From: Candidatus Omnitrophota bacterium
GTDB lineage: Bacteria; Omnitrophota; Omnitrophia; Omnitrophales; Aquincolibacteriaceae
DNA length: 64,000 nucleotides
Direction: 5' to 3'
NCBI GenBank assembly: GCA_016196555.1
Contig: JACPXL010000002.1
Location: forward strand, 17,865-81,864
Made by a program: the position numbers and the translations under genes. The notes beneath the pieces are model-generated. The model ran no database searches and was not told where the DNA came from. It saw nothing but the letters and a program-made list of their open reading frames with translations. Below are positions 1,906-31,823 of the stretch, one piece after another (within the stretch, counting starts at the first letter, position 1; each line of letters opens with the position of its first letter).

Positions 1906-1934
1906 TTGAAAAACCCTCTCTACACGTCTATACT
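1906..1934 (+). promoter_or_regulatory. Sigma70-type promoter of the pilus operon: TTGAAA-N17-TATACT, with the -10 ending 10 nt before ATG 1945
   Basis: TTGAAA at 1906-1911, a 17-nt spacer, TATACT at 1929-1934. There is no purine-rich SD between the -10 and the ATG. Confidence 0.55.
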
Positions 1935-1944
1935 TTGTATAGCT

Positions 1945-2412
1945 ATGAGAGAAAGATCCAAAAAACTCCTAGGAGAAGTGCTTATTGAAGATGGCATTCT
2001 ATCGCGAGAACACCTTCAAGAGGCCCTGGATTATCAAAAAGTCCATGGGGGCTTAATCGGACAAATCCTCATCGCTCACGGCTATATACGCGAAGAAAAC
2101 CTTGTGGCTGCCTTGGGGAGGCAGCTCAATATTCCCTATCTGCCCATTGCCCAATATTCCATCAATCCTGAAAGTGCTGCGCTGATGGACCCTAACTTTT
2201 GCCGTAAAAATCTGCTCTATCTTTTTGATCATGATGAGCGGCATGTTTTTGTCGCCATGGCAGACCCTTTAAATAATTTTGCGGTGGAAGAAGTCGAAAA
2301 TCAGCTGAAGCGAAAAGCCCAGGTGTTTTTGTCCACTCAGACAGAAATTTTTACAGTCCTGGATAGTCACGCGGCCCAAACTTATAAAAATGAGATAAAA
2401 AAAGCAGGATAA
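1945..2412 (+). CDS. Stand-alone T2SSE_N / MshEN-like domain protein (no ATPase domain)
   Basis: LLGEVLIEDGILSREHLQEALDYQ-KVHGG-LIGQILIAHGYIREENLVAALGRQ, followed by LNIPYLPI...FVAMADPLN, typical of GspE/PilB N-terminal domains. I moved the start to ATG 1945 because the track TTG at 1906 coincides with the -35 box. Confidence 0.8.
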   Translation: MRERSKKLLGEVLIEDGILSREHLQEALDYQKVHGGLIGQILIAHGYIREENLVAALGRQLNIPYLPIAQYSINPESAALMDPNFCRKNLLYLFDHDERHVFVAMADPLNNFAVEEVENQLKRKAQVFLSTQTEIFTVLDSHAAQTYKNEIKKAG

Positions 2413-2415
2413 ATT

Positions 2416-4203
2416 ATGCAACGCAACGACAGTGTGCGCGCGGATTTTTCAAGCGCATTGGCAGAAGCAAAGGTTGTCTCCAAAGAAACTTTAAAAGAGC
2501 TTGTGAAAGAATCTGCTAAAACCGGCGAATCCCTTCTGAATGTACTTTTGAGCGCCGGTCAATTCGACGAAAAAAATCTTCTCAAAGTTTTAAGCGAAAG
2601 ATACGGCTGTACTATTGTGAATCCTGCGGTTTTTATTCTCGAACCTGCCTTGTTAAATCTGATTCCTGCAAAATGCGCTGATCAATACCAAGTGCTTCCG
2701 ATTGCGCTTCATGAAAAAACGCTGACTGTAGCCTTTGCTAATCCCATGAATGTTAAAGCGGTGGATGAATTACGGGCTATCACAAACTATCACATCAAAC
2801 CGGTAGTTGCGGCTGCCAGCGCCATTAAAAAAATGATTAAGAAATATTATTTTGAAATGGACTTCAAGCAGCCGGAGCTCGATGCGCATCAAGAAATGGC
2901 GCAGTTGATCAAAATTATCCGTGACCAAAAAGAAAACGATAAAGCAAAATCCACAGCGGCGGCCGCGCTTAAAATCGCTTATGAAACGCCGGTCATTCGA
3001 TTGGTTAATTTGCTCATTCTGGAAGGTATCCGCAGAAAGGCGAGTGACATTTTCTTTGAGCCCTGGGAGCAATTTGTCAGGATTCGGGTGCGGGTAGACG
3101 GATTGTTGGAAGAGGTTGTCTGTCCTCCAAAAAACTTGGCTGAAGTAATCGTCTCACGAATAAAAATTATGAGTGAGTTAAATATTGCCGAGCACCGCAT
3201 CCCTCAGGACGGACGTTTCAAAGTCAAATATCGTGACAGAGAAGTGGATCTCCGCGTCTCGATCCTTCCTTCAAGTTTTGGCGAGAAAGTTTGTCTGCGA
3301 ATATTGGATACAAAAAATCAAGGGCATGATTTGAATCAGCTTGGATTTACACCGCAGGAATTTGGAATTATTCAAGCCAGTGCGAGCCGTCCGCATGGAA
3401 TGATTCTTGTGACGGGTCCGACGGGAAGTGGAAAGACCACGACTCTCTACTCCGTTTTGAAATATTTGGACACTCCCGAGGTGAATATTACAACGGTGGA
3501 AGACCCTATTGAGTATCAAATACCGGGAATCAATCAGGTTCAAGCAAAAGAATCAATCGGCCTCACTTTTCCCGCAGCTCTGCGGTCGATATTGCGGCAA
3601 GATCCAGATATTATTTTAATCGGTGAAATTCGTGATCGTGAAACTTTAGACATTGCCGTCAAGGCCGCACTAACCGGCCATTTAGTTTTAAGTACTCTGC
3701 ATACCAATGACGCAGCCAGTTCCGTCACTCGAATGGCCAATATGGGGTTGGAACCGTTTTTAATTACGTCCACGGTCCAGATGATATCTGCACAGCGTTT
3801 GGTGCGGCGATTATGCCAGCGGTGCCGGATCAAAGAAGTTGTCAGTGATGAAGTGTTCGAACAGCTTCATTTGCCAGACCGCAAAAGTCACACCTTTTAC
3901 ACAGCAAAGGGGTGTGCGCAATGCCGACAGACTGGTTATAAGGGGCGCAGTGTGATTACTGAAATTTTGCAAATGAAGCCCGAAATTTCCGCGCCGATTA
4001 TGCGAGGAGCTTCTGCGGATGAAATCAAAACGATTGCCAGGAAATTCGGAATGACGACGCTCCGTGAAAGTGCGATTCAAAAAGCTTTGAGCGGTGAAAC
4101 ATCCCTACAGGAAGTGTTCCGGGTTACCAGTGAAGATTCTCCGGCAGGTTCAAATCGGAAAGCGGCGGATCCAGTGGCTGAAGAAGCGGAGGAAGCTGCA
4201 TGA
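2416..4203 (+). CDS. pilB: Type IV pilus assembly / type II secretion ATPase (PilB/GspE family), paralog 1
   Basis: Walker A GPTGSGKTTT, Asp box, Walker B ILIGEIRD, His box LSTLHTND, and a tetracysteine CQRC...CAQC. It has an N-terminal T2SSE_N-type domain. Confidence 0.9.
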   Translation: MQRNDSVRADFSSALAEAKVVSKETLKELVKESAKTGESLLNVLLSAGQFDEKNLLKVLSERYGCTIVNPAVFILEPALLNLIPAKCADQYQVLPIALHEKTLTVAFANPMNVKAVDELRAITNYHIKPVVAAASAIKKMIKKYYFEMDFKQPELDAHQEMAQLIKIIRDQKENDKAKSTAAAALKIAYETPVIRLVNLLILEGIRRKASDIFFEPWEQFVRIRVRVDGLLEEVVCPPKNLAEVIVSRIKIMSELNIAEHRIPQDGRFKVKYRDREVDLRVSILPSSFGEKVCLRILDTKNQGHDLNQLGFTPQEFGIIQASASRPHGMILVTGPTGSGKTTTLYSVLKYLDTPEVNITTVEDPIEYQIPGINQVQAKESIGLTFPAALRSILRQDPDIILIGEIRDRETLDIAVKAALTGHLVLSTLHTNDAASSVTRMANMGLEPFLITSTVQMISAQRLVRRLCQRCRIKEVVSDEVFEQLHLPDRKSHTFYTAKGCAQCRQTGYKGRSVITEILQMKPEISAPIMRGASADEIKTIARKFGMTTLRESAIQKALSGETSLQEVFRVTSEDSPAGSNRKAADPVAEEAEEAA

Positions 4204-5924
4204 TCAGCGGGATCTCAAAAGATAAGTTGGCGGAATTGCTGACGGGGGAGTACAAGATTTCGAGTAAACAAATCGAAGAACTTTCTGCGGAGAGCCGGCA
4301 GCAGAAAAAGCTGATTTTCCATTTATTGATCGAGAAAAAGATTTTATCCGAAGAAGACGTCATTGATTTTTTAAGCCGCCATCTAAAAATTCCTACTCTA
4401 AATTTGAGTGCTTGCAAAGTCACGAATGAAGTAATTAAAATCGTTCCCAAAAAAATCGCTGAACGGTACGAGGTTTTTCCGATTTCCCGGATTAATAACT
4501 TTTTGACGGTTGCGACGAGTAATCCTTTTGAGGTGATGGGCCGAGACGATCTCAAAGGTCTTACCCAATGTGATATTTGTCTTGTTCTTGTCCCGCCCCG
4601 TGCCATTCATACGGCAATCGAAAATTACTATGGTGAATCCAATGCGTTGGGAGAAATGCTCGAAGGCATGGATGAAAGCAGTGTAGAAATTATTCCTCTT
4701 AAAAGCTCGGCCCCGGCGGAAAGCGGGGAATTGAATTTAGCGAATAAGGAAAAAGCTGAAGATGCTCCTGTGGTCCGTATGGTGGACCTCATTCTCAATG
4801 AGGGTTTGAAATTGCGGGCGTCTGATATTCACATGGAACCCTATGAAAAGAATTTTCGTGTCCGTTACCGTATTGATGGAGTGTTGAAAGAATCTTTTTC
4901 CCATCCGGGCGAACTTTATCCGGGGCTCGTCGCGAGACTGAAAATCATATCGCGGCTTGATATGACGCAAAAGAGATTGCCTCAAGACGGACGATTTAGG
5001 GTGAAGATCCACGACCGGGAAATCGATTTCCGAATCTCCATTCTTCCCACCAATTACGGGGAGAAAGTTGTGATGCGTGTTTTGGACCGAAGCGGCGTTC
5101 GGGCCGGTCTTGAAAAACTTGGATTCAGTGGAAATACGACCGTGGCTTTTTCAAAGGCCATCAAGCAGCCTTATGGAATGATTCTCGTTACGGGGCCAAC
5201 CGGAAGCGGCAAATCGACTACGCTCTATTCGATTTTAAACTCGCTCAATCTGCCGGAACGTAATCTGATGACAGTCGAAGATCCTGTGGAATATCAACTC
5301 AGCGGAATTACGCAAACTCAAGTGAATCTTGATGTTGGGCTGACATTTGCCGCGGGGCTGCGCTCTCTCTTACGGCAGAGTCCGGACATTATTCTCGTGG
5401 GAGAAATTCGCGATAGCGAAACCGCCGATATTGCCGTTAAAGCCGCTCTCACTGGCCATTTGGTTTTTAGCACACTTCATACCAATAGTGCTGCCGGTGC
5501 TATGACGCGGCTAGTCGATATGGGAGTTGAACCATTTCTTATTTCTTCTTCGGTGATCTGTGTAGCGGCCCAGCGCCTTCTTCGTCGTATTTGTGAAGTC
5601 TGCAAAGCACCTGTAGAAGTTTCGCATGATTTGCTAAAACATTGCAAAATGAAACCTTCTGAGATTGCCAGTCTAAAAAGCTTTGCCGGAAAAGGCTGCA
5701 CCAAATGTAACAAGACGGGTTATTACGGCAGGCAGGCCGCTATTGAGATTTTAACCGTAACTCCTGCGATCCGAGAAATGATTGTTCAACAGAGATCGAG
5801 TACCGAAATTCATCGATTAGCGGTTGAAGAAGGAATGCAGACCCTTTTTGAAAATGCTTTAGAAATTTTTAAACGCGGACATACAACCCTCGCGGAAGTG
5901 CTGCGCATTGCGGCGCCGGATTAA
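4200..5924 (+). CDS. Type IV pilus assembly / type II secretion ATPase (PilB/GspE family), paralog 2
   Basis: GPTGSGKSTT, ILVGEIRD, FSTLHTNS, CEVC...CTKC. ATGA start/stop overlap with paralog 1 at 4200-4203. Confidence 0.9.
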   Translation: MISGISKDKLAELLTGEYKISSKQIEELSAESRQQKKLIFHLLIEKKILSEEDVIDFLSRHLKIPTLNLSACKVTNEVIKIVPKKIAERYEVFPISRINNFLTVATSNPFEVMGRDDLKGLTQCDICLVLVPPRAIHTAIENYYGESNALGEMLEGMDESSVEIIPLKSSAPAESGELNLANKEKAEDAPVVRMVDLILNEGLKLRASDIHMEPYEKNFRVRYRIDGVLKESFSHPGELYPGLVARLKIISRLDMTQKRLPQDGRFRVKIHDREIDFRISILPTNYGEKVVMRVLDRSGVRAGLEKLGFSGNTTVAFSKAIKQPYGMILVTGPTGSGKSTTLYSILNSLNLPERNLMTVEDPVEYQLSGITQTQVNLDVGLTFAAGLRSLLRQSPDIILVGEIRDSETADIAVKAALTGHLVFSTLHTNSAAGAMTRLVDMGVEPFLISSSVICVAAQRLLRRICEVCKAPVEVSHDLLKHCKMKPSEIASLKSFAGKGCTKCNKTGYYGRQAAIEILTVTPAIREMIVQQRSSTEIHRLAVEEGMQTLFENALEIFKRGHTTLAEVLRIAAPD

Positions 5925-5928
5925 CCTT

Positions 5929-7158
5929 ATGCCGACATTTGAATATTACGTAAAAGACCAAGCCGGAAAGGATCAGACAGGCATCCAAGAAGCGATGGAT
6001 ATTCCTACGCTTGTTTCCATTCTGCGGTCTCAGGGGCTTGTGATCATCCGTATTAATGAGGTCAAAAACCGAAAGGTTTTCAGCCTGCAAAAAGGCCCTA
6101 AGTCTAAAGGCGGTAAAAGCGGGAAAGTCAAACTGGATGATCTTGTTATCTTTTCTCGTCAAATGGCCACGCTCGTGGGTGCTGGGATTCCGCTTGTCCA
6201 GTCGCTCGATATTTTGGCAGAACAAGTGGAAAAAGAAAAATTTAAAACGATTTTGCGCGGTATGCACCAAGAAGTGCAGGGAGGCAAGAGTTTTTCCGAG
6301 GCGATGTCGAAGCATCAAAAGGTCTTTTCCACGCTTTTTATTTATATGGTCCGCGCTGGAGAACAGAGCGGAAATTTAGAAGAAATTTTGGACCGAGTTG
6401 CCAATTATTTGGAAAAATCGAGCGCACTGCAAAAGAAAGTCAAAGCCGCATTGATGTATCCAGCTTCCGTGACATTGATTGCGTTTTCAATCACATTTGC
6501 GATGCTGACATTTGTGATTCCAAAATTTGCGACTATTTTTCAAGGCCTCAATGTTGCCCTGCCGCGTCCTACGCAAATTTTGATCGATGTCAGTAATTTT
6601 CTCGCGGCGAATTGGATTTTAGTTCTTGCGATCATTGGCGGCAGCGCTGTCGGGATTGTTCAGGCAGTCAAATTACCCGGAGTGCGTTTGGCGTGGGACA
6701 GCCTTAAATTACGAATCCTCATTTTTGGGCCTCTTCTTCTCAAGGTAGCGATTAGTAAGTTTTCCCGAACCCTTGCAACACTTGTTCGAAGCGGAGTTCC
6801 TATTTTGTCATCTCTTGAGATTGTCTCCAAAACGGCCGGAAATATGCAAATTGAGAAAATGATCATCTCATTAATGGAAGCTGTAAGAAAAGGGGAAAGC
6901 CTTGCGGGTCCGCTGGGGAAAAGCGGTGTTTTCCCTTCCATGGTTGTACGCATGATTGCCATTGGGGAAGAAACCGGAGAACTGGAAGAGATGCTAATCA
7001 AGATTGCCGATTTTTACGATACCCAGGTCGATACGGCCGTAACCGGCTTGACCGCCTTAATAGAACCTTTAATTATTTTATTTTTAGGGGTCGTTATAGG
7101 GGGAGTCGTTATCGCGCTGTTTTTACCGATTTTGACCTTGGCTCAACACCTGAAGTAG
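5929..7158 (+). CDS. pilC: Type IV pilus / T2SS inner-membrane platform protein (PilC/GspF family)
   Basis: Two GspF-type repeats (FSRQMATLVGAGIPLVQSL and FSRTLATLVRSGVPILSSL) and C-terminal hydrophobic helices. I chose the start at ATG 5929 (MPTFEYY), just after the upstream stop. Confidence 0.9.
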   Translation: MPTFEYYVKDQAGKDQTGIQEAMDIPTLVSILRSQGLVIIRINEVKNRKVFSLQKGPKSKGGKSGKVKLDDLVIFSRQMATLVGAGIPLVQSLDILAEQVEKEKFKTILRGMHQEVQGGKSFSEAMSKHQKVFSTLFIYMVRAGEQSGNLEEILDRVANYLEKSSALQKKVKAALMYPASVTLIAFSITFAMLTFVIPKFATIFQGLNVALPRPTQILIDVSNFLAANWILVLAIIGGSAVGIVQAVKLPGVRLAWDSLKLRILIFGPLLLKVAISKFSRTLATLVRSGVPILSSLEIVSKTAGNMQIEKMIISLMEAVRKGESLAGPLGKSGVFPSMVVRMIAIGEETGELEEMLIKIADFYDTQVDTAVTGLTALIEPLIILFLGVVIGGVVIALFLPILTLAQHLK

Positions 7159-7248
7159 TCCATTTTTCCTGGTAATACAATCTTCTTAAAACCCTGTAAG
7201 AACTGTTCGAATAATGAGGAATAAAATGAATTTTAGTTTTGTCAGGAT

Positions 7249-7277
7249 TTGCCGTTATGTAACTTTAAGGCTATACT
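7249..7277 (+). promoter_or_regulatory. Candidate sigma70 promoter for the pilin gene: TTGCCG-N17-TATACT
   Basis: TTGCCG at 7249-7254 and TATACT at 7272-7277. A GGAGG SD sits about 9 nt before ATG 7319. Confidence 0.4.
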
Positions 7278-7318
7278 TCTTTGTAGGGTACGATGGAATT
7301 CAAAACGGAGGTGCGTCA

Positions 7319-7807
7319 ATGTTTATCAAGTTAAATCAAAAAGGTTTTACCCTGGTAGAAATCATGATTGTGGTTGCGATTATCGGGTTGCTCGCTGCGA
7401 TTGCAATTCCCAATCTGCTTCGTGCCAGAATGAACTCCAATGAAGGTGCGATGAAGTATGATCTGAGAACGTTTAGTTCGGCGAATGAGAGCTTCCGCAG
7501 CGCTCAAAATCCCCCGCAATATGCTGCAACGATTGCTGGTCTTGTGACACCGGCGGCGGGGCCTGCGTATCTTGATGCATCGTGGAACACCCCACCTAAG
7601 CATGGATTTGCTTTGGCTTATGCAGGTGGCGGCGCAGGAACACCAGATACCTTTTCACTGCTTTCCACGCCTCAAACGGCGAACCAGACAGCAGTGAACA
7701 CCTATTGTGTTGATCAGACGGGTGTTGTGGTCGGTTCAGTCAATGGAACCGGTGCTCCGGCTGGTGGCGCGGGTGGGTGTACCGGAGGTACGCCGATCGG
7801 CGGTTAA
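7319..7807 (+). CDS. pilA: Type IVa (pseudo)pilin, probable major pilin
   Basis: Short leader MFIKLNQKG followed by FTLVEIMIVVAIIGLLAAIAIPNL (prepilin cleavage/methylation motif with Glu5). C-terminal Cys pair (YCVDQ...GGCTGG) and a Gly-rich tail. The start is at ATG 7319 with a GGAGG SD; the upstream track extension is rejected. Confidence 0.9.
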   Translation: MFIKLNQKGFTLVEIMIVVAIIGLLAAIAIPNLLRARMNSNEGAMKYDLRTFSSANESFRSAQNPPQYAATIAGLVTPAAGPAYLDASWNTPPKHGFALAYAGGGAGTPDTFSLLSTPQTANQTAVNTYCVDQTGVVVGSVNGTGAPAGGAGGCTGGTPIGG

Positions 7808-7913: not shown

Positions 7914-9053
7914 ATGATGAAATTTGTTCAAATTTCAAAAAACAAAAAACAGGAATTTAAAAAAATAGCACTCGATTATGGCCGCAAGCTCTACCGACAA
8001 CTTCAATCGACGTCCCTCTTTCATAAAGAACCACAAAATACCGGTCCCGTTTCTACTATCGCGTGTGATTATGGTCATTCAAAGATTATTTTTGTGGAAA
8101 TGCAAAAATCAGAATCAGGACTTCACCTTATTCGTTTTCATAAAAGTTTAAGATCGGATGGGAATAAAGTGGGCGTTGATATGATCAAAAAGATTTTTAC
8201 TGACGGCAAATACAGCCATTCGCGCGTCAGGGTGTCGGTTAAAGGCCAGGGGGTTGTTGTCAGATTTATTCAATTCCCTCAGATGAAGCATGAGGACGTG
8301 CGCAGTGCTATTTCTTTTGAGGCTGAAAAGTACATTCCATTTAAAGCTGAAGAAGTTATCATCGATTATCATGTCCTGGATGAAAACATTGTCCAGGGAA
8401 CCGGCACTTTTATGAATCTTTTGCTGGTGGCTGTACGCCGCGATGAGCTGAACCCCGTGATTCAAACCTTTCATGAGGCAGGTCTTCAAGTTGAATTTGT
8501 GGATGTGGATGCTTTGGCTTCGATGAATTCCTTGGAGTATTTTCACCCTGAAGAATGGAAGAAATCCGTGGGTTTTATTGATTTTGGCGCCGAGATTTCA
8601 AGTTTGTGCATTATCCGGGAAGGAAAGCCGAGATTTATGCGGGATATCTCGTTCGGAGGAATGGATTTTATTAAACGCCTAAAACGCAAACTTGGCGTGA
8701 CGGAAGAAAAAGCCCGGGAACATTTTCTCCAGGCTGCCGACAAACCATCCCCTGAAGTTATTCCCATTATTCAAGAATCGGTAGAGACCTTGATCGCTGA
8801 TTTGAAAGTTTCCCTGGATTATTATTTGGATCAGATTCCCAATGCGCAGCCGCTGCAAAAACTTTTTATTTCTGGAACCGAAGCCTATCATCCGCAAGTC
8901 GTGCAAATGCTTTCCAAGGAATTTTCGATTCCCGTAGAACCCATGAATATTCTTGAAAAATTAACTTTGGGACCGGATGTCGACAAACGATTGGTCATGG
9001 AAAATCAGGGCTTTTTACCTGTCCCCATAGGCCTTTGTTTGAGGGACCAATGA
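7914..9053 (+). CDS. pilM: Type IV pilus assembly protein PilM (actin-like ATPase fold)
   Basis: Size and position directly upstream of pilNOPQ-type genes. ALDYG...IACDYGHSKIIF and FIDFGAEISSL are consistent with the PilM/FtsA-like fold. Confidence 0.8.
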   Translation: MMKFVQISKNKKQEFKKIALDYGRKLYRQLQSTSLFHKEPQNTGPVSTIACDYGHSKIIFVEMQKSESGLHLIRFHKSLRSDGNKVGVDMIKKIFTDGKYSHSRVRVSVKGQGVVVRFIQFPQMKHEDVRSAISFEAEKYIPFKAEEVIIDYHVLDENIVQGTGTFMNLLLVAVRRDELNPVIQTFHEAGLQVEFVDVDALASMNSLEYFHPEEWKKSVGFIDFGAEISSLCIIREGKPRFMRDISFGGMDFIKRLKRKLGVTEEKAREHFLQAADKPSPEVIPIIQESVETLIADLKVSLDYYLDQIPNAQPLQKLFISGTEAYHPQVVQMLSKEFSIPVEPMNILEKLTLGPDVDKRLVMENQGFLPVPIGLCLRDQ

Positions 9054-9622
9054 TTCGCGTTAATCTTTTGCCGGAGGAATTCCGCATTGCAGAAAAGAAG
9101 AAGCCGCCCATCCCTTATGTTAAAATTGCCGTTGGTGTCGGCGTTCTCTTCGTTGTTTTGACCGGTATTTTTTATCTCGATTATCTTGTGGCGCTGGCCC
9201 AGCGCGGACAGGTTCAAAAACAATGGTTGAAAATCCAGCCGGAAGCCCTTTCGTTGAATCAGCTTCGCAATGATGTCGAAGGCGTTCTTAAACCTGAAAA
9301 AGAATTTTTCGAAAAATACGTGGACACTTCCACATCGCTTACCAATCTTATGATGTGGATAAGTCAATTTTTGCCAGAGACTGCCTGGCTGACCGAATTA
9401 AAGCTCGAATATAACGAGAAAGAAGTGGAATTTCTGGTGAAGGGCCTTTGCATCTCCACCAAAGACAACTCGAGTATCGAGCAAATTGAAAAATATACGC
9501 AGCAGCTCAATAGCAAAATTCCTTATGCGATGCTCAATTTGACCACGACCCGGCAGGAATTCGAGGGGCAGCAGTTGACCCAATTCATTATCCAGTTTAG
9601 CTGGAAGAATCAGGTTCTATGA
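9050..9622 (+). CDS. pilN: PilN-like bitopic pilus alignment protein
   Basis: N-terminal IRVNLLPEE motif followed by one TM helix. ATGA overlap with pilM if ATG 9050 is used. Confidence 0.75.
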   Translation: MIRVNLLPEEFRIAEKKKPPIPYVKIAVGVGVLFVVLTGIFYLDYLVALAQRGQVQKQWLKIQPEALSLNQLRNDVEGVLKPEKEFFEKYVDTSTSLTNLMMWISQFLPETAWLTELKLEYNEKEVEFLVKGLCISTKDNSSIEQIEKYTQQLNSKIPYAMLNLTTTRQEFEGQQLTQFIIQFSWKNQVL

Positions 9623-10227
9623 AGCCGCTTACTCAGTGGACTCAACACGATATTATAGATTTTTTCCGAAAAGCCGATAAAAAAGTCTGGATCAAATTTG
9701 CAGCCATTGGGGCTGCTGTTTTTCTTGTCCTGATTTTGATTATTTGGCCGGCTTGGTTTAAGCGTCTCGGGATCCGGGATGAGATCAAGAATACGAAGGC
9801 AAAGATTCAAACTCTAGAAACCCTTCGCATTAAAAAGAGCGAATGGATTCATAATAAAACAGATTACGCACATTACGTAGCGGGTATTAAACAGAGGCTC
9901 TACACATCCAGTGAATCCTCACTCCTATTAGGAGAAATTTCAAAATTGGCTAAAGAAAGCAATGTTGTCATTATTGCCTCACGCCCCCAAGATGTTTCTG
10001 CGAAATTTCCTGCGCCGTACGACCAAAATTATGAAAGCCGGTATTATAATTTTGTTGTGGAGGGCGGATATCATGAGCTCGGGGCATTGATGAGCCGTAT
10101 CGAATCTTATCCAAAGCTCCTTAGAATTCAAAAATTTAAAATTACTCCACGGGACGACAAACCAGCGAGTCATTTGGCGGAAATTCAGCTGGCTGTTATT
10201 GCGGTAAAAAAAGGAAGTGCTGGATGA
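9619..10227 (+). CDS. pilO: PilO-like pilus alignment protein
   Basis: One N-terminal TM helix, a coiled-coil segment, and C-terminal GGYHELGALMSRIESYPKLLRIQKFKI typical of PilO. 4-nt overlaps on both sides. Confidence 0.7.
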   Translation: MKPLTQWTQHDIIDFFRKADKKVWIKFAAIGAAVFLVLILIIWPAWFKRLGIRDEIKNTKAKIQTLETLRIKKSEWIHNKTDYAHYVAGIKQRLYTSSESSLLLGEISKLAKESNVVIIASRPQDVSAKFPAPYDQNYESRYYNFVVEGGYHELGALMSRIESYPKLLRIQKFKITPRDDKPASHLAEIQLAVIAVKKGSAG

Positions 10228-10616
10228 GGATTAAATATCGTCTTTTGTTCGCTTGCCTATTATTGCTGGCGCTTGCCTTTGTGGGTGGAGGGCGGAAGGT
10301 CTCTGCCGTAGAAGCTCAATACGACGCGCTGGAAAAACGGGACCCTTTTGTTCCGCTTATCGGGCGCGGCGGAGTCTTGCTGCATGTTTTTGATCCCTCT
10401 GGATATCAGATCGAAGGTATAATTTATGATCAGATTGATGGATCTCTAGCTTTAATCAACGGAGAATTTTACCGCGAAGGAGAAAAGGTTAAAGAGGCTG
10501 TGGTTAAAAAGATTCATACGGATCGTGTGATTATTGCGGAAACGAATGATGAGATTACCCTCTGGCTCAATCCCGATACCCAAAATGGGGGAAATAGCAA
10601 TGCTAAGAAAATATAA
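10224..10616 (+). CDS. Small secreted protein in the PilP position (PilP-like)
   Basis: Signal peptide MRIKYRLLFACLLLLALAFVGG...VSAVEA and a C-terminal beta-rich LALINGEFYREGEKV...VVKKIHTDRVII. The call rests mostly on gene order. Confidence 0.5.
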   Translation: MRIKYRLLFACLLLLALAFVGGGRKVSAVEAQYDALEKRDPFVPLIGRGGVLLHVFDPSGYQIEGIIYDQIDGSLALINGEFYREGEKVKEAVVKKIHTDRVIIAETNDEITLWLNPDTQNGGNSNAKKI

Positions 10617-12231
10617 CTTTCGTTTTTTCATTTTATTGAACGCAGCACTTTTTCTTCCTTGTTTGTTGGCGCATGCTGAAATCTCAGGAGGAACGCCGGC
10701 TGGAGCAGCAACGGGTGCCGCTACGGCTCAGCCAACTCTGACTGGAGAAGAAGATCCGAATAATATTACCTTGGATTTTAAAGATGCAGATATTAAAACA
10801 GTTTTGCGGGTTATGAGTTTAAAAAGCCGTGTGAATATTGTGGCAGGGCCTGAGGTGCGGGGGACGATTACGATCCGCCTCGAAGATGTTCCATGGGAAA
10901 AAGCACTGGAAGTGGTTTTGAGAACATATGGCTATGTTTATGAAAGAGACGAAAATATCATCCGTGTTACCACTCGAGACAATTTGGCCATGGAGCCTTT
11001 AACAACCCAAACTTATGTCCTTAACTATACTAAGGCCAAAGAGATACAGACGGCCGTGCAGGACATGCTGACCGAGCGGGGAAGGATTCAAATTGCAGAA
11101 CGGACAAATACGATTATAATATCCGATATTCCGACTAATCTTTACCGGGTTGGGGAAGTTATAAAGAAACTGGATAAAATCACTCCACAGGCATTTATTG
11201 ATTCGAAAATTGTGAAAACGGACGTAGGAATTACTGAAAATTTGGGCATTGAGTGGAAAACAGGAGGAAGTAACAATCTTGGGTCTTTAACCGCATCTTC
11301 GCGTCCCACGACCTTTCCTTTCATGACACGTACCGATGATGAGCAAGATCCCTTGGCGCAGGCTCTGGAGCAATTTTTGCCGATTGCGACTTCGGGTTCT
11401 AATGCAGTCCCCAATCCGTTTGCGGATCGCGCCTTTCCTCTGAATCCGTCGCAAAGCACGACAGGAAAAGGTTTTGAATTTGGGACATTGGACTTTACGG
11501 ATTTTAGCTCGGTTCTTCAAATGCTGCAAAGCCGGTCCAATACCAAAGTTGTTTCCAATCCCCGAATTGTTGTTTTAAATAATCAAACCGCCACCGTTCA
11601 AGTAGGCAGTGATGTTCCGCTTCCCAATTTTGAACGCAATGAAACAACAGGAAGTGTTGAAGTTACAGGGTTTTCATTCCGCCAAGTGGGAGTGGTTCTT
11701 AATGTCACTCCCCATATCAATACGGAGGAAGAAATTTTAGTCGATTTGCAGCCCGAAGTCAGCTCCACGGGCGCAACCATTGATTTTAAAGATTTTCAAG
11801 TTCCAAGTTTTAATGTGACAAAAGCAGTTACGCAAGTGCTTATCCGCAGCGGTCAAACCATTGCGATTGGGGGGCTTTTAACCGACAGTGTTTCCACGTC
11901 GGAATCGAAAGTCCCTTATCTAGGCGATATTCCGCTGGTGGGCAAGCTATTTCGTTCAAAACGACAATCAGCAGGAGACAGTAATAAGAAAATAGAAACA
12001 CTCTTTTTTGTGACGGTGACCATGGTGGACACGGAAGGTCAGCCGACCGGTGAAAGAGCAGCCCAGCGCAAAAGAAAAAATCAGACGCAGGGTAATGCTA
12101 ATAAGCCGAAAGAAAAAGTCGCGACTCAAGCATCAGAATTAAAAAGTGCAGAATCACAAGAGTCCAACGCAGCAAGCTCGACAAATCCAGCGGTTTCTGA
12201 AACAGGAATGAAATCTCAAGCCGCCGCGTAA
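10600..12231 (+). CDS. pilQ: Secretin (PilQ/GspD family)
   Basis: Signal peptide, secretin core VVSNPRIVVLNNQTATVQVG and VPYLGDIPLVGKLFRSK. About 70 aa of K/Q/S/A-rich C-terminal tail. I chose the start at ATG 10600. Confidence 0.9.
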   Translation: MLRKYNFRFFILLNAALFLPCLLAHAEISGGTPAGAATGAATAQPTLTGEEDPNNITLDFKDADIKTVLRVMSLKSRVNIVAGPEVRGTITIRLEDVPWEKALEVVLRTYGYVYERDENIIRVTTRDNLAMEPLTTQTYVLNYTKAKEIQTAVQDMLTERGRIQIAERTNTIIISDIPTNLYRVGEVIKKLDKITPQAFIDSKIVKTDVGITENLGIEWKTGGSNNLGSLTASSRPTTFPFMTRTDDEQDPLAQALEQFLPIATSGSNAVPNPFADRAFPLNPSQSTTGKGFEFGTLDFTDFSSVLQMLQSRSNTKVVSNPRIVVLNNQTATVQVGSDVPLPNFERNETTGSVEVTGFSFRQVGVVLNVTPHINTEEEILVDLQPEVSSTGATIDFKDFQVPSFNVTKAVTQVLIRSGQTIAIGGLLTDSVSTSESKVPYLGDIPLVGKLFRSKRQSAGDSNKKIETLFFVTVTMVDTEGQPTGERAAQRKRKNQTQGNANKPKEKVATQASELKSAESQESNAASSTNPAVSETGMKSQAAA

Positions 12232-28642: not shown

Positions 28643-30013
28643 TTAGAGTTTGTATTCGTCGATTTTCCGGTAGAGCGTTCGGCGGGAAATTCCCAATTTT
28701 TTAGCGGCGGATGATTTATTTCCACGGGAATCATTGAGAGCTTGTTTGATAAATTCTTTTTCCACATCGCTCAAATTTCTGGAGCCATTGAGTAAAGATT
28801 CGGTTGTGGAAGAAGATAAAATTTGACCGGAATTGTTGCGTATGTCATCAGGGACGTTGGCGAGATGAAGATGATGCTCATTGCTTAAGACGACCATTCT
28901 CTCAATAATATTTTTGAGTTCGCGGATATTTCCAGGCCAGGGATATTGCAGCAAGGCTTGTTTTGCGTCAGGAGCAAGAGTCGGTGGTTTTTTTCCGTTT
29001 ATTTCAGAAAAGTATTTAATAAAATAATCAATCAGCGGAAGAATGTCTTCAGGGCGTTCACGCAGTGAAGGTAATTTGATATAAATCACATTGATGCGAT
29101 AATACAAATCTTCACGGAATCTTCCTTTATTGACCTCTTCCTTTAGATTTTTATTAGTCGCGCAAACCAGCCGGACATCGACTCGTATTGTTTTGGAGCC
29201 GCCCACACGCTCGAATTCTCCGTTTTGTAGAACGCGCAGAAGTTTGACTTGTGTTTCAGCTGAGATTTCCCCGACTTCATCCAAAAATAAAGTCCCCTGA
29301 TGAGCCCGCTCAAACCTTCCGATTTTTCTTTCCGAAGCGCCGGTAAAGGCGCCGCGTTCATGGCCAAACAGCTCACTGGCGAGCAGCGTTTCCGTCAGGG
29401 CGGCACAATGGACGGCAATAAAGGGCTTGCTTGCGCGTGAACTTAGACGATGGATACGATGCGCGATCAATTCCTTGCCCGTGCCACTTTCGCCTTCAAT
29501 TAAAACGGCGGAATTTGATTTTGCGATTTTGTCGACGGTTCGCAGCGCTTCTTTCATCTTGGGAGAAACGGCTAGAATTTCACCCCGCTCAAATTTTTGG
29601 GTGAATAAGGCTTGGCGCAGTTCTTGGTTTTCTTCTTCTAGGTTTTTCTTTGCGAGAGATTTGGTAACCAAAAAATCCAACTCTTCAAGATTGATTGGCT
29701 TGGTTAAATAATAGTACGCTCCTTTTTTCATGGCTTTGACAGCATCTTCGACTGAACCGTAAGCTGTCAGAAAAATTACGGTGGCTTTAGAATCGTGAGC
29801 GATTATTTTTTCGAGGAGTACTATCCCGTCCATTTTTGGCATTTTGACATCGCATAACACGAGATCGGGTTTATCTTTGAGATAAATCTCCCAGCCTTCG
29901 CTTCCATCCGCGGCCAAAAGAATATCATAACCTTTTGCTTCCAAAAATTGCTTCAGGCCATCGCGGGTATTTTTTTCGTCATCAACAATTAAAATGGTGG
30001 CAAATAAGGGCAT
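28643..30013 (-). CDS. Sigma54-dependent response regulator (NtrC family: REC + AAA+ + Fis-type HTH)
   Basis: REC domain with D at ILIVDDE...CDVKMP, Walker A GESGTGKE, GAFTGA motif, and a C-terminal HTH AAKKLGISRRTLYRKI. Confidence 0.92.
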   Translation of the reverse strand: MPLFATILIVDDEKNTRDGLKQFLEAKGYDILLAADGSEGWEIYLKDKPDLVLCDVKMPKMDGIVLLEKIIAHDSKATVIFLTAYGSVEDAVKAMKKGAYYYLTKPINLEELDFLVTKSLAKKNLEEENQELRQALFTQKFERGEILAVSPKMKEALRTVDKIAKSNSAVLIEGESGTGKELIAHRIHRLSSRASKPFIAVHCAALTETLLASELFGHERGAFTGASERKIGRFERAHQGTLFLDEVGEISAETQVKLLRVLQNGEFERVGGSKTIRVDVRLVCATNKNLKEEVNKGRFREDLYYRINVIYIKLPSLRERPEDILPLIDYFIKYFSEINGKKPPTLAPDAKQALLQYPWPGNIRELKNIIERMVVLSNEHHLHLANVPDDIRNNSGQILSSSTTESLLNGSRNLSDVEKEFIKQALNDSRGNKSSAAKKLGISRRTLYRKIDEYKL

Positions 30014-30022
30014 AGGTTTTAG

Positions 30023-31192
30023 TTAGGATGCTTTTAGTTCATTGGTTAGTTGAAGTTTAGTGCGGCGAATGGGAAGAAGAATAGCGAACGTTGTCCCCTT
30101 CCCAAGTTTACTCGTGACTTCAATCTTGCCGCCATGTTCCATCACATGATTGTAGACCGTCATAAGGCCCAGGCCCGAGCCTTCTTCCTTAGTTGTGTAA
30201 TAGGCCTCAAAAATATGGGGCAAATCCCTTTCGGAAATTCCCTGGCCTTCATCTTGAAAATGCAGTATTGCAACCTGATTGCGATGAGAAATGCGAATTT
30301 TAATCATGCCGCCCCTTTGCATAGCTTCCATTGCATTTTTGAGAAGATTAATAAAAGCTTGATAGAGCCGCTCGCGGTCCATCAAAAATGGAGCCAGAGA
30401 GCGGTCGGGACGAAATTTAATCGCAATTTTTCGTTCCGAAAGTTCCGGAGCCATAAATTGAGCAGCTTCCTCGACAAGAGAATTCAGATCTTCCAGACGG
30501 AACCTTAAAAGCGGTTTCCGGGTCGCTTTTAAAAAATGACGCACAATTCTATCAAGACGAGCGGTTTCGGTATTTAGAATATGCAAAGTTTTGGCAACAG
30601 CTTCACGTTTTACCTCGGGCAATGTAGCAACTTCCTTTTTTAGGAGTTCTAAATGAATATTGAGTGAATTTAGGGGATTTCCGATTTCATGGGCCAAGCC
30701 CGCAGTCAACCGGACCATGGCTTCAATCCGCGCCAAGCGTTCTTCATCCGATTGGCGGATTTTTTGTTCAGTAATATTGGCAATGATCACGACAATTATT
30801 TTTTGGCCGTTAGAGGCATACGGGGCTAAAGTGACTCGCAAAAAACTTTCACGCGGGCTTAAAACTTGAAAATCTTGAACAACTTTGGCGGAGAGACCTT
30901 TTAAATTTTGTTTAATAAACCGGCTCAAAACCGGGTCTTCAATGGAGTCTTGGAATTTGGTGTTAAGGGGAAAATCCTCCTGCACGCCAAGCCAAAAAGA
31001 AGCGCTGCGATTAAGGAATAAAACCTGGCCTTTTTCGTCGATTAAGGCAAGCCCTTCTTCGAGTTCCTGAAAAGCTTCTCGGTAAAGGGCGGTTTCATCA
31101 CAAAGCTTTTTAAGATAATTGCGGATGGCTTCACGATCCAGCCGGTCCACATGTTCTAAAAGTTTGTAAGTAAAACCGCTCCGTTCAGGCAT
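30023..31192 (-). CDS. Cytoplasmic PAS-domain sensor histidine kinase
   Basis: H-box LAHEIGNPL, N-box LLKNAMEA, G-boxes DEGQGI and GSGLGL. No TM helix. I chose the start at ATG 31192 (MPERSG), which gives an ATGCCTGA overlap with the trpF stop. The longer track ORF would dual-code conserved trpF sequence. Confidence 0.85.
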   Translation of the reverse strand: MPERSGFTYKLLEHVDRLDREAIRNYLKKLCDETALYREAFQELEEGLALIDEKGQVLFLNRSASFWLGVQEDFPLNTKFQDSIEDPVLSRFIKQNLKGLSAKVVQDFQVLSPRESFLRVTLAPYASNGQKIIVVIIANITEQKIRQSDEERLARIEAMVRLTAGLAHEIGNPLNSLNIHLELLKKEVATLPEVKREAVAKTLHILNTETARLDRIVRHFLKATRKPLLRFRLEDLNSLVEEAAQFMAPELSERKIAIKFRPDRSLAPFLMDRERLYQAFINLLKNAMEAMQRGGMIKIRISHRNQVAILHFQDEGQGISERDLPHIFEAYYTTKEEGSGLGLMTVYNHVMEHGGKIEVTSKLGKGTTFAILLPIRRTKLQLTNELKAS

Positions 31193-31823
31193 GTAGGCGC
31201 TTTTTTTCTCCTTTGGCCAAATGGATAAATTGCTCCAAAAGCTGCGGATCTTTTTGCCCAGGACTTTTTTCAACACCGCTTGCCACATCGACGGCAAAGG
31301 GATGGATTTTATCAATGACTTCGGCCACGTTTTGAATATTCAAGCCACCCGCAATAAAAAGCTTTTCATGCACAAAGGGCCGGTCACCGATTAATTTCCA
31401 ATCGAAAGGAATGCCTGTTCCCCCTTTTGCGTCTTTACTATAAGTATCAAATAAATAGGAAGTTACGTTGTATTCATCGATGCGCTTGAGGCTCATAGCA
31501 TCTTTAATATGAAAGGTCTTGATCACTTCAAAGCCTTCATTTATGAAGTACTGGCAATACCGGGCGGTTTCATCGCCATGAAATTGAAGAATTTTAAGGC
31601 CCAGTTTACTGGCAATGCGTTTGACTTCGGTTTTGGGCTGATTGCAGAAAACCCCGACAAAATTTTTGAATCCGGAAATATTCCCAATAATTTCGGAAGC
31701 CATTGCAGGGTCGATCCGGCGTTTACTCTCGGTAAAAATAAATCCCAAATAATCCGCGCCTAAAGAAACCGCAAGCTTGGCATCTTGAACATTTGTATTT
31801 CCACAAATTTTCACCCGCGTCAT
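31185..31823 (-). CDS. trpF: Phosphoribosylanthranilate isomerase
   Basis: MTRVKICGNT..., LGADYLGFIF, and C-terminal FAVDVASGVE. Confidence 0.9.
   Translation of the reverse strand: MTRVKICGNTNVQDAKLAVSLGADYLGFIFTESKRRIDPAMASEIIGNISGFKNFVGVFCNQPKTEVKRIASKLGLKILQFHGDETARYCQYFINEGFEVIKTFHIKDAMSLKRIDEYNVTSYLFDTYSKDAKGGTGIPFDWKLIGDRPFVHEKLFIAGGLNIQNVAEVIDKIHPFAVDVASGVEKSPGQKDPQLLEQFIHLAKGEKKRLHA

Follow-up and report, generated by a model that had tools for sequence, protein, structure and literature searches.

The DNA analyzed here is a 64,000-nucleotide (nt) stretch of contig JACPXL010000002.1 from a Candidatus Omnitrophota bacterium (hereafter, the window). At the head of its type IVa pilus operon is a gene for a small protein, here called the sensor, that has an MshEN domain and no ATPase domain and that is followed by two PilB-type ATPases, PilB1 and PilB2, whose own copies of the MshEN motif are degenerate. 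We consider it likely that the sensor is a free-standing MshEN (GSPII)-type receptor for cyclic di-GMP (c-di-GMP), probably one of high affinity, and that it most likely ties the adjacent type IVa pilus machine, in trans, to the level of c-di-GMP. We read it as a c-di-GMP receptor because its predicted contact residues are invariant in 40 species and its N-subdomain is its most constrained part, a pattern that would be hard to explain otherwise.

The sensor is an MshEN domain with an intact tandem motif

The first-pass annotation of this DNA described the sensor as a T2SSE_N-type domain of 155 amino acids (aa) without an ATPase, in which residues 8 to 60 (DNA 1966 to 2124) form two 24-residue copies of a c-di-GMP-binding motif joined by a 5-residue spacer. 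Translation of positions 1945 to 2412 agrees exactly with the length of the protein and with the placement of the motif. The sole Pfam match is MshEN (PF05157), at residues 61 to 144, with 60.1 bits versus a gathering score of 23.1. Neither the T2SSE ATPase domain (PF00437) nor a PilZ domain was matched by Pfam in the sensor; the chain ends at residue 155, and the resemblance to PilZ is functional only. The PilB model TIGR02538 aligns with the sensor over positions 2 to 142 only. The label "PilB," which some sources give to some members of the family, is an overstatement.

The tandem motif is recognized by the 53-position NCBIfam model NF053729 ("c-di-GMP_motif"), which gives a score of 59.4 bits (cut-off, 38) and pairs residues 9 to 60 with model positions 2 to 53. 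The extended motif used for position-by-position reading is (R/K/L)LGxx(LVI)(LVI)xxG(LVIF)(LVI)xxxxLxxxLxxQ, in two 24-residue copies with a 5-residue spacer. When all six frames of the window were searched with the relaxed motif of Wang et al., with Leu also allowed at position 1, there were only two matches, which are exactly these two copies, 29 residues apart (24 + 5). The motif pair is therefore not a chance pattern. The parts of the gene are as follows.

1945 to 2412, plus strand: sensor, stand-alone MshEN protein, 155 aa, without an ATPase domain (translation, Pfam, NCBIfam, and structural model)
1966 to 2037, plus strand: c-di-GMP motif copy 1, residues 8 to 31, LLGEVLIEDGILSREHLQEALDYQ, agreeing at 11 of the 11 specified positions of the extended consensus
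2038 to 2052, plus strand: spacer KVHGG, residues 32 to 36, the five residues between the motif copies
2053 to 2124, plus strand: c-di-GMP motif copy 2, residues 37 to 60, LIGQILIAHGYIREENLVAALGRQ, agreeing at 9 of the 11 specified positions
2125 to 2376, plus strand: MshEN_C/T2SSE_N1 subdomain, residues 61 to 144 (PF05157; alignment to 5HTL)

The earlier statement that every motif position fits except the leading Arg holds for copy 1 but not for copy 2, which also has Ile where the extended consensus has Leu (position 2) and Tyr where it has L/V/I/F (position 11). These two departures are conservative, and Ile is the residue most often found at position 2 of copy 2 in the family (33 of 40). 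The sensor does not have the strict RLG form of the motif, but it does have the published (R/K/L)LG form. Within the spacer, G35 is invariant and G36 nearly invariant in the 40-species alignment, and K32 and G36 are invariant in an alignment of 31 proteins. In the C-subdomain, Asp107 (in ADPLN) pairs with Asp108 of MshE, which is a guanine-contacting residue; in the family alignments D107 is nearly invariant and P108 is invariant.

The deposited annotation (P0001, 144 aa) starts this gene at the GTG of codon 12 (MLIEDG...) and thereby drops four residues from the beginning of motif 1, LLG with Gly10 among them (window 1945 to 1977). The N terminus of the family is conserved, which favors the ATG at 1945 as the start. 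Since the start was called 11 codons late and motif 1 was cut, motif-based censuses of c-di-GMP receptors would miss the sensor. The starts of two other family members, P0032 and P0039, appear to have been miscalled in the same way.

Leu at the first motif position is compatible with tight binding

The first-pass annotation named evidence that the missing Arg abolishes binding as something that would count against a receptor function. We reject this possibility on the basis of published work. The motifs of Thermus PilF GSPII-B start with Lys and Leu, and the dissociation constant (KD) of this domain for c-di-GMP is 6 nM (Neissner et al. 2024, PMC11731258). Its K167L variant, in which Leu comes first in both motifs, has a KD of ~2 nM, so that Leu at position 1 is not only tolerated but raises affinity (PMC11731258). 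The same authors widened the consensus to (R/K/L)LG... and proposed that very high affinity can be predicted from a hydrophobic residue at position 1 (PMC11731258). Mutation of Arg9 in MshE shifted affinity <5-fold (Wang et al.), and binding by the MshE variants G11L and G40I was undetectable. In a further study (PMC12002112), replacement of Gly by Ala cost ~30-fold, binding was abolished when motif 2 began with Ser, and Gln at position 24 was needed. It is features of this second kind, and not the Leu at position 1, that do away with binding, and PilB1 and PilB2 are the proteins that carry them.

The predicted fold of the sensor matches that of MshE-N bound to c-di-GMP

The AlphaFold2 model of the sensor, made from the family alignment, has a mean predicted local distance difference test (pLDDT) score of 89.7 and consists of four helices followed by an alpha/beta subdomain. 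Compared with the PDB, its top match is 5HTL, the MshE-N/c-di-GMP structure, with template modeling (TM) scores of 0.76/0.84 and a root mean square deviation of 2.2 Å over 137 columns; the next matches are liganded PilF GSPII-B structures, K167L among them. By phmmer, the sensor aligns with 5HTL collinearly and without gaps over 120 residues, and those PilF domains that bind c-di-GMP also align without gaps. The structure-guided comparison with Vibrio cholerae MshE-N that had been proposed as a check thus places the motifs in register and superposes the predicted model on 5HTL. In its Pfam and NCBIfam matches, its tandem motif with the Gly and Gln residues, and its predicted two-subdomain fold, the sensor agrees with an MshEN c-di-GMP receptor domain, and it is not a PilB or MshE ATPase.

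Both downstream ATPases have degenerate motifs and intact catalytic elements

The two ATPases and their motif regions are as follows.

2416 to 4203, plus strand: PilB1, PilB-type ATPase, 595 aa, with intact Walker A, Walker B, His box, and two CxxC pairs
2443 to 2601, plus strand: degenerate motif region of PilB1, residues 10 to 62, DFSSALAEAKVVSKETLKELVKES / AKTGE / SLLNVLLSAGQFDEKNLLKVLSER, with Ser at position 3 of copy 1 and Leu at position 3 of copy 2
4200 to 5924, plus strand: PilB2, PilB-type ATPase, 574 aa, with intact Walker A, Walker B, His box, and two C-terminal CxxC pairs
4224 to 4382, plus strand: degenerate motif region of PilB2, residues 9 to 61, KLAELLTGEYKISSKQIEELSAES / RQQKK / LIFHLLIEKKILSEEDVIDFLSRH, with Ala at position 3 of copy 1 and Phe at position 3 of copy 2

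The earlier description of these motifs as degenerate is borne out by position-by-position reading and by scores below the NF053729 cut-off of 38 for both PilB1 (16.1 bits) and PilB2 (22.2 bits). The position 3 Gly is missing from all four copies, the internal Gly is left only in PilB1 copy 2, and the terminal Gln is replaced by S, R, S, and H. All of the catalytic and zinc motifs listed above have been kept, and therefore neither PilB1 nor PilB2 looks dead as an enzyme. The two genes overlap by 4 nt, and the pair is present in every locus whose sequence extends to it. The 64-kb window has no PilT-like gene, and none adjoins the cluster in most loci.

Intact sensor and degenerate PilBs are conserved across Omnitrophota

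A search for the sensor family returned 54 clusters, all of 135 to 172 aa and all with PF05157 as the sole domain, and turned up a nearly identical protein annotated in a Candidatus Omnitrophica metagenome-assembled genome (MAG); truncation in a single assembly therefore does not account for the gene. When one genome of each GTDB species was scanned with a profile of 15 closer sequences, 80 loci were returned. Forty of the matches (L005 to L042, L058, and L072) are from Omnitrophota or unclassified MAGs and have the same synteny. Of these matches, all but one are stand-alone open reading frames (ORFs) of 145 to 168 aa (39 of 40), the outlier being L072, of 468 aa. Across the 40-species set of orthologues, overall identity to the window sensor is 36 to 61%. 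The matches in other phyla are, with few exceptions, N termini of ordinary PilB/GspE ATPases, mostly of 520 to 600 aa. In this survey of related genomes, of the kind that had been suggested earlier, the same split architecture recurs in ~40 species. The order sensor, PilB1, PilB2, PilC is found in all 39 Omnitrophota loci with downstream DNA (L005 stops at the contig edge), and PilM is usually next. In L001 to L003 the cluster is complete to the PilQ secretin, and the upstream genes CinA, LigT, and glycosylase are shared; L006 and L003 are the same contig, as are L031 and L001.

Motif columns were read from the N termini of the sensor, PilB1, and PilB2 aligned to MshE, with the following results.

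Stand-alone sensor (n = 40), conserved columns: Gly at position 3 of both motifs in 40 of 40 (Gly10 and Gly39); Gln at position 24 of both motifs in 40 of 40 (Gln31 and Gln60)
Stand-alone sensor (n = 40), position 1: K (18), R (17), or L (3) in motif 1; L (32), M (6), or V (2) in motif 2, always hydrophobic and never Arg
PilB1 (n = 39): Gly at position 3 in 0 of 39 (K/Q/R/S in motif 1, L/I/V/S in motif 2); Gln at position 24 partly or fully lost; position 1 unconserved
PilB2 (n = 34): Gly at position 3 in 0 of 34 (V/L/A/W in motif 1, F/P/L/A in motif 2); Gln at position 24 partly or fully lost; position 1 unconserved

At an E value of ≤1e-8, NF053729 matches 40 of 40 sensors, 4 of 39 PilB1 proteins, and 2 of 34 PilB2 proteins. 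The best-scoring ATPase N termini are those of the two deepest-branching genomes (L041 and L042), in which the motifs are near consensus except at the glycines (S/T/K/P). Motif decay in the PilBs is graded, and loss of the Gly is universal among the genomes examined. Mean pairwise identities of the subdomains are as follows.

Sensor: N-subdomain, 63%; C-subdomain, 47%
PilB1: N-subdomain, 43%; C-subdomain, 52%
PilB2: N-subdomain, 31%; C-subdomain, 48%

Selective constraint is inverted between the sensor and its ATPase paralogues. The alignments support the view that an intact sensor beside degenerate PilBs is a conserved, selected arrangement and not an accident of one genome.

We also considered whether the sensor is a recent duplicate of a neighboring PilB N-domain. 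This is unsupported, as its C-subdomain is equally far from PilB1, from PilB2, and from the PilBs of other phyla.

A different kind of explanation is that the small ORF is really the N terminus of a PilB with two MshEN domains, either because a sequencing error has split the gene or because stop codon readthrough links the ORF to PilB1. In the window the two ORFs share a frame and are parted by TAA-ATT only, and (MshEN)2-4-T2SSE fusions occur elsewhere. However, the stop codon that closes the small ORF, at 145 to 168 aa, is conserved across 40 genomes, and arithmetic on start coordinates puts the sensor and PilB1 in a shared frame in only 8 of ~38 loci, which is fewer than the one-third that chance would give (in L001 and L003 the frames differ). 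In addition, PilB1 has its own Shine-Dalgarno sequence and ATG. Based on the conserved stop codon and the frame count, we reject a split gene or a readthrough fusion with PilB1 as extremely improbable. The junction itself is as follows.

2406 to 2418, plus strand: sensor/PilB1 junction, AGGA-TAA-ATT-ATG, with a 3-nt intergenic gap and the PilB1 Shine-Dalgarno sequence within the end of the sensor gene

This layout suggests translational coupling of PilB1 to the sensor, and the gaps between the two genes in orthologues, where start coordinates are comparable, are mostly 1 to 21 nt.

A proposed model for control of the pilus motor in trans

The analysis shows which domain the sensor is, that its motif is intact, its predicted fold, its place in the operon, its conservation over the phylum, and the inverted constraint between it and the ATPases; ligand binding, the conformational relay, and the partner of the sensor are what we infer in the following model. 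Both 24-residue motifs, which lie in the four-helix N-subdomain, would clamp one monomeric c-di-GMP. Its guanines would be read at their Hoogsteen edges by the backbone amides of Gly10 and Gly39, the bases would be sandwiched by the Leu triads L9/L53/L57 and I38/L24/L28 together with the position 1 residues Leu8 and Leu37, and Gln31, Gln60, and Asp107 would complete the ligand site. Binding would then reorient the C-terminal T2SSE_N1 subdomain, as it does in PilF GSPII-B (PMC11731258), and this reorientation would change how the sensor engages the pilus motor, whether through PilB1, PilB2, or the PilM/PilC platform. Pilus extension would in this way become c-di-GMP dependent, though both ATPases have lost a ligand site of their own.

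Docking of the sensor on PilB1 and/or PilB2 would fit the tight junction with PilB1 and, by analogy, the Xanthomonas PilZ-FimX precedent; PilM or PilC is equally plausible as a partner. One version of the latter, and the main rival to our reading, is that the sensor acts as a decoy or adaptor at the platform, with its T2SSE_N1 subdomain taking the PilM/PilC site of the PilB N1 domains, so that c-di-GMP gates access of the motor by competition or bridging. In line with this, the sensor retains a full and conserved C-subdomain. In GspE, the N1 domain, a homologue, binds the cytoplasmic domain of the PilM-like protein GspL, such complexes (2BH1 and 4PHT) are among the fold matches, and a 2024 review of PilB cofactors holds that the N1 domain probably forms an interface with the stator. 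However, the C-subdomain of the sensor is as far from the N1 domains of PilB1 and PilB2 (18 to 20%) as from PilBs of other phyla (21%), and surface mimicry is not evident. This low identity to PilB N1 domains, in a subdomain that is conserved within its own family, therefore argues weakly against simple mimicry. For the tight PilB1 junction, which agrees with translational coupling, a stoichiometric ATPase partner is at least as good a fit. Taken together, these points make a platform decoy credible but unlikely.

A more elaborate possibility, which we regard as quite doubtful, is that one free c-di-GMP sensor arbitrates between two tandem, catalytically intact extension-type ATPases that no longer sense the ligand themselves, perhaps by choosing the motor or a PilB1/PilB2 mixed hexamer at the platform. 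If this were true, the pilus of these host-attached nanobacteria would be switched by c-di-GMP via motor choice and not by allostery within one polypeptide.

Evidence bearing on c-di-GMP as the ligand

Several points weigh against the sensor being a c-di-GMP receptor of the pilus machine. Nothing credible was found in the 64-kb window for GG(D/E)EF, EAL, HD-GYP, or PilZ, either by regular-expression search or by Pfam analysis of 30 ORFs, and Rfam gave no c-di-GMP riboswitch in the window. Regular-expression search of ~576 kb of orthologous loci, which are small and largely syntenic parts of their genomes, likewise gave no credible GGDEF, EAL, or HD-GYP motif; the EAL-pattern matches in these screens sit within PilB and other unrelated proteins. 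Synthesis of c-di-GMP by this organism is thus supported only at the level of the phylum, by the literature on Omnitrophota, in which GGDEF domains, pilZ genes or PilZ homologues, and ComFB fusions have been reported and type IVa pili are near-universal. The C-subdomain of the sensor is only 18 to 21% identical to any PilB N1 domain, so its contacts may differ. According to Wang et al., MshEN can bind cyclic GMP-AMP (cGAMP) as well. Finally, by analogy with Thermus PilF GSPII-A, an intact motif would be necessary but not sufficient for binding by the sensor: GSPII-A does not bind even with the consensus restored, because an N-capped, elongated helix 1 and tight packing of the subdomains block the site (PMC12002112).

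These observations bear on the possibility that the motif has been kept without c-di-GMP sensing, with the sensor responding to another nucleotide (such as cGAMP) or serving as a ligand-independent assembly or stabilizing factor for PilB, like the nonbinding PilZ proteins of Xanthomonas and Pseudomonas. The failure of GSPII-A to bind despite its high similarity, the cGAMP binding of MshEN, the lack of a cyclase in the sampled DNA (the window and the orthologous loci), and the finding that PilZ stabilizes the PilB N1 domain without binding c-di-GMP (2024 review) are all in line with this. In contrast, Gly3 and Gln24 of both motifs and the Leu triads are invariant over the 40 species despite 36 to 61% identity, and the N-subdomain is the most constrained part of the protein. 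The N-cap motif is also absent before helix 1 of the sensor: the residues that precede motif 1 (MRERSKK) place Glu3 at the N-cap and Lys6 at N3, outside the capping pattern, and helix 1 of the AlphaFold model starts at residue 9. This is an encouraging sign that falls short of proof, as AlphaFold does not reliably reproduce the subdomain packing of GSPII-A (PMC12002112). We therefore consider it very unlikely that the sensor has kept its motif for a purpose other than c-di-GMP sensing, and we favor c-di-GMP as its ligand.

Operon layout and expression signals

The first-pass annotation placed the sensor gene at the head of the pilus operon, and the DNA upstream of it is in keeping with this. 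A 112-nt gap separates the upstream glycosylase gene from the sensor gene, and within the gap is the following site.

1906 to 1934, plus strand: promoter-like site, sigma-70 type, with TTGAAA at 1906 to 1911, a 17-nt spacer, and TATACT at 1929 to 1934 (10 of 12 consensus matches)

The site ends 10 nt 5' of the ATG, and the sensor gene has no Shine-Dalgarno sequence. The same layout, TTGnnn-N17-TATACT-N10/11-ATG without a Shine-Dalgarno sequence, recurs in 12 orthologous Omnitrophota loci besides the window (in the range L006 to L019 and L058). This recurring footprint supports a promoter and a near-leaderless mRNA start, predicted at about position 1941, at the sensor gene. A second subclade has an AAGGGG ribosome-binding site instead, plus a conserved TGCCGTTACTTATAGATAAG element. 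Directly 5' of the sensor gene, the genomes that branch deepest (L041, 6888 to 7961; L042, 6916 to 7986) have a PilT-like ORF, ~357 aa long, where the others have the CinA-LigT-glycosylase block.

The rest of the pilus cluster in the window is as follows.

5908 to 7158, plus strand: PilC platform protein (Pfam, NCBIfam)
7214 to 7807, plus strand: type IV pilin with N-terminal methylation motif (Pfam)
7914 to 12231, plus strand: PilM, PilN, PilO, PilP, and PilQ, in this order, at 7914 to 9053, 9035 to 9622, 9619 to 10227, 10224 to 10616, and 10534 to 12231

PilM, PilO, and the secretin were identified by Pfam, and PilN and PilP by position alone; the order is the same in L001 and L003. About 16 kb from the pilus cluster, on the minus strand (28643 to 31315), the window encodes an NtrC-type sigma-54 response regulator and a histidine kinase, which are candidates for a PilS/PilR-like pair.

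Other MshEN architectures

An exhaustive profile search of the MshEN superfamily gave 36,706 representatives at an E value of ≤1e-3, with many multidomain and ATPase-less forms. The top profile matches (P0055 to P0203) include very long proteins with 4 to 8 MshEN repeats and up to 1,345 aa, and many two-domain proteins of 200 to 400 aa, too short for an ATPase domain. MshEN architectures in metagenomes are far richer than the published table. The 468-aa outlier among the Omnitrophota matches (L072, 7974 to 9380) has an intact MshEN_N double motif fused to CHASE2 (134 bits). Its C-terminal end is hydrophobic and, by eye, probably membrane spanning, with no output domain detected; such a combination of a cytoplasmic c-di-GMP module and an extracytoplasmic sensor domain is unusual. 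This predicted fusion shows that the MshEN_N module is used elsewhere in Omnitrophota. In two Leptospiraceae MAGs (L080, 8007 to 8204; L083, 7998 to 8195), proteins of 65 aa consist of the 53-residue MshEN_N module alone, with both motifs Leu-first (PLLGELLVEDG... and GLIGIILV...) and no Pfam detection. The L080 gene adjoins a hybrid histidine kinase and not PilB.

Relation to known systems and significance

In predicted fold, in its tandem 24 + 5 + 24 motif, and in its link to a type IV pilus, the sensor is like the N-terminal domain of V. cholerae MshE (5HTL). It differs in being a separate polypeptide, whereas MshE-N is fused to a T2SSE ATPase, and in having Leu in place of Arg at position 1 of both motifs; the two are 27% identical. 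The sensor shares motif starts other than Arg, as well as a strong sequence and fold match, with Thermus thermophilus PilF GSPII-B (8PDK; K167L, 8PE0), which, unlike the sensor, is one of three tandem domains within an ATPase polypeptide. PilF GSPII-A (9G1W) has the predicted fold of the sensor together with a natural loss of binding like that predicted for the PilB1 and PilB2 N-domains. However, it is silenced partly by its N-cap and subdomain packing and not by its motif alone, and the sensor is without that N-cap sequence. Pseudomonas aeruginosa PA3740 (MshEN-xT2SSE_N1) is also ATPase-less and is listed as binding c-di-GMP experimentally and linked to swarming (Wang et al. 2016 supplement). 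By description, PA3740 differs in that neither a pilus operon around its gene nor partner PilBs with degenerate motifs are mentioned, and its C-subdomain is highly diverged.

The closest functional precedent for sensing in trans is the Xanthomonas citri PilB-PilZ-FimX system (7LKO), in which separate proteins carry c-di-GMP sensing to the PilB N1 domain. There the sensor is a degenerate EAL protein (FimX), which acts via a nonbinding PilZ and is not homologous, whereas here the trans factor would itself be an N1 domain paralogue. In Acinetobacter baylyi there are likewise two extension-type ATPases on one pilus machine, PilB and TfpB, and a small trans regulator, CpiA (2024 review), and TfpB is among the NCBIfam matches of both window ATPases. 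CpiA is an unrelated inhibitor, however, and no MshEN-type ligand sensor is known for the PilB/TfpB system. ATPase-less MshEN proteins (PA3740, FrgA, and MshEN_N-only forms) and trans control of PilB by c-di-GMP are thus already known. Searches of open-access full text (PMC and bioRxiv) and of the 2024 review yielded no account of a stand-alone MshEN paralogue as the fixed first gene of a type IVa pilus operon, or of one that lies beside two tandem PilBs lacking the site and is conserved over a phylum-level clade.

The relay from c-di-GMP binding by the MshEN/N1 domain to the PilB motor is poorly understood (2024 review), and flexibility of the N-terminal domain in the full-length ATPase has hindered structural work. 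A sensing domain that is a separate small protein makes this coupling a two-molecule interaction, open to titration, mutation, and imaging. The arrangement is also a clear example of subfunctionalization, in that one paralogue has retained the ligand site in 40 of 40 species while the essential Gly is gone from both ATPases in all genomes examined. For the uncultured Omnitrophota, the sensor adds a likely regulator of the type IVa pili by which these bacteria are believed to attach to their host.

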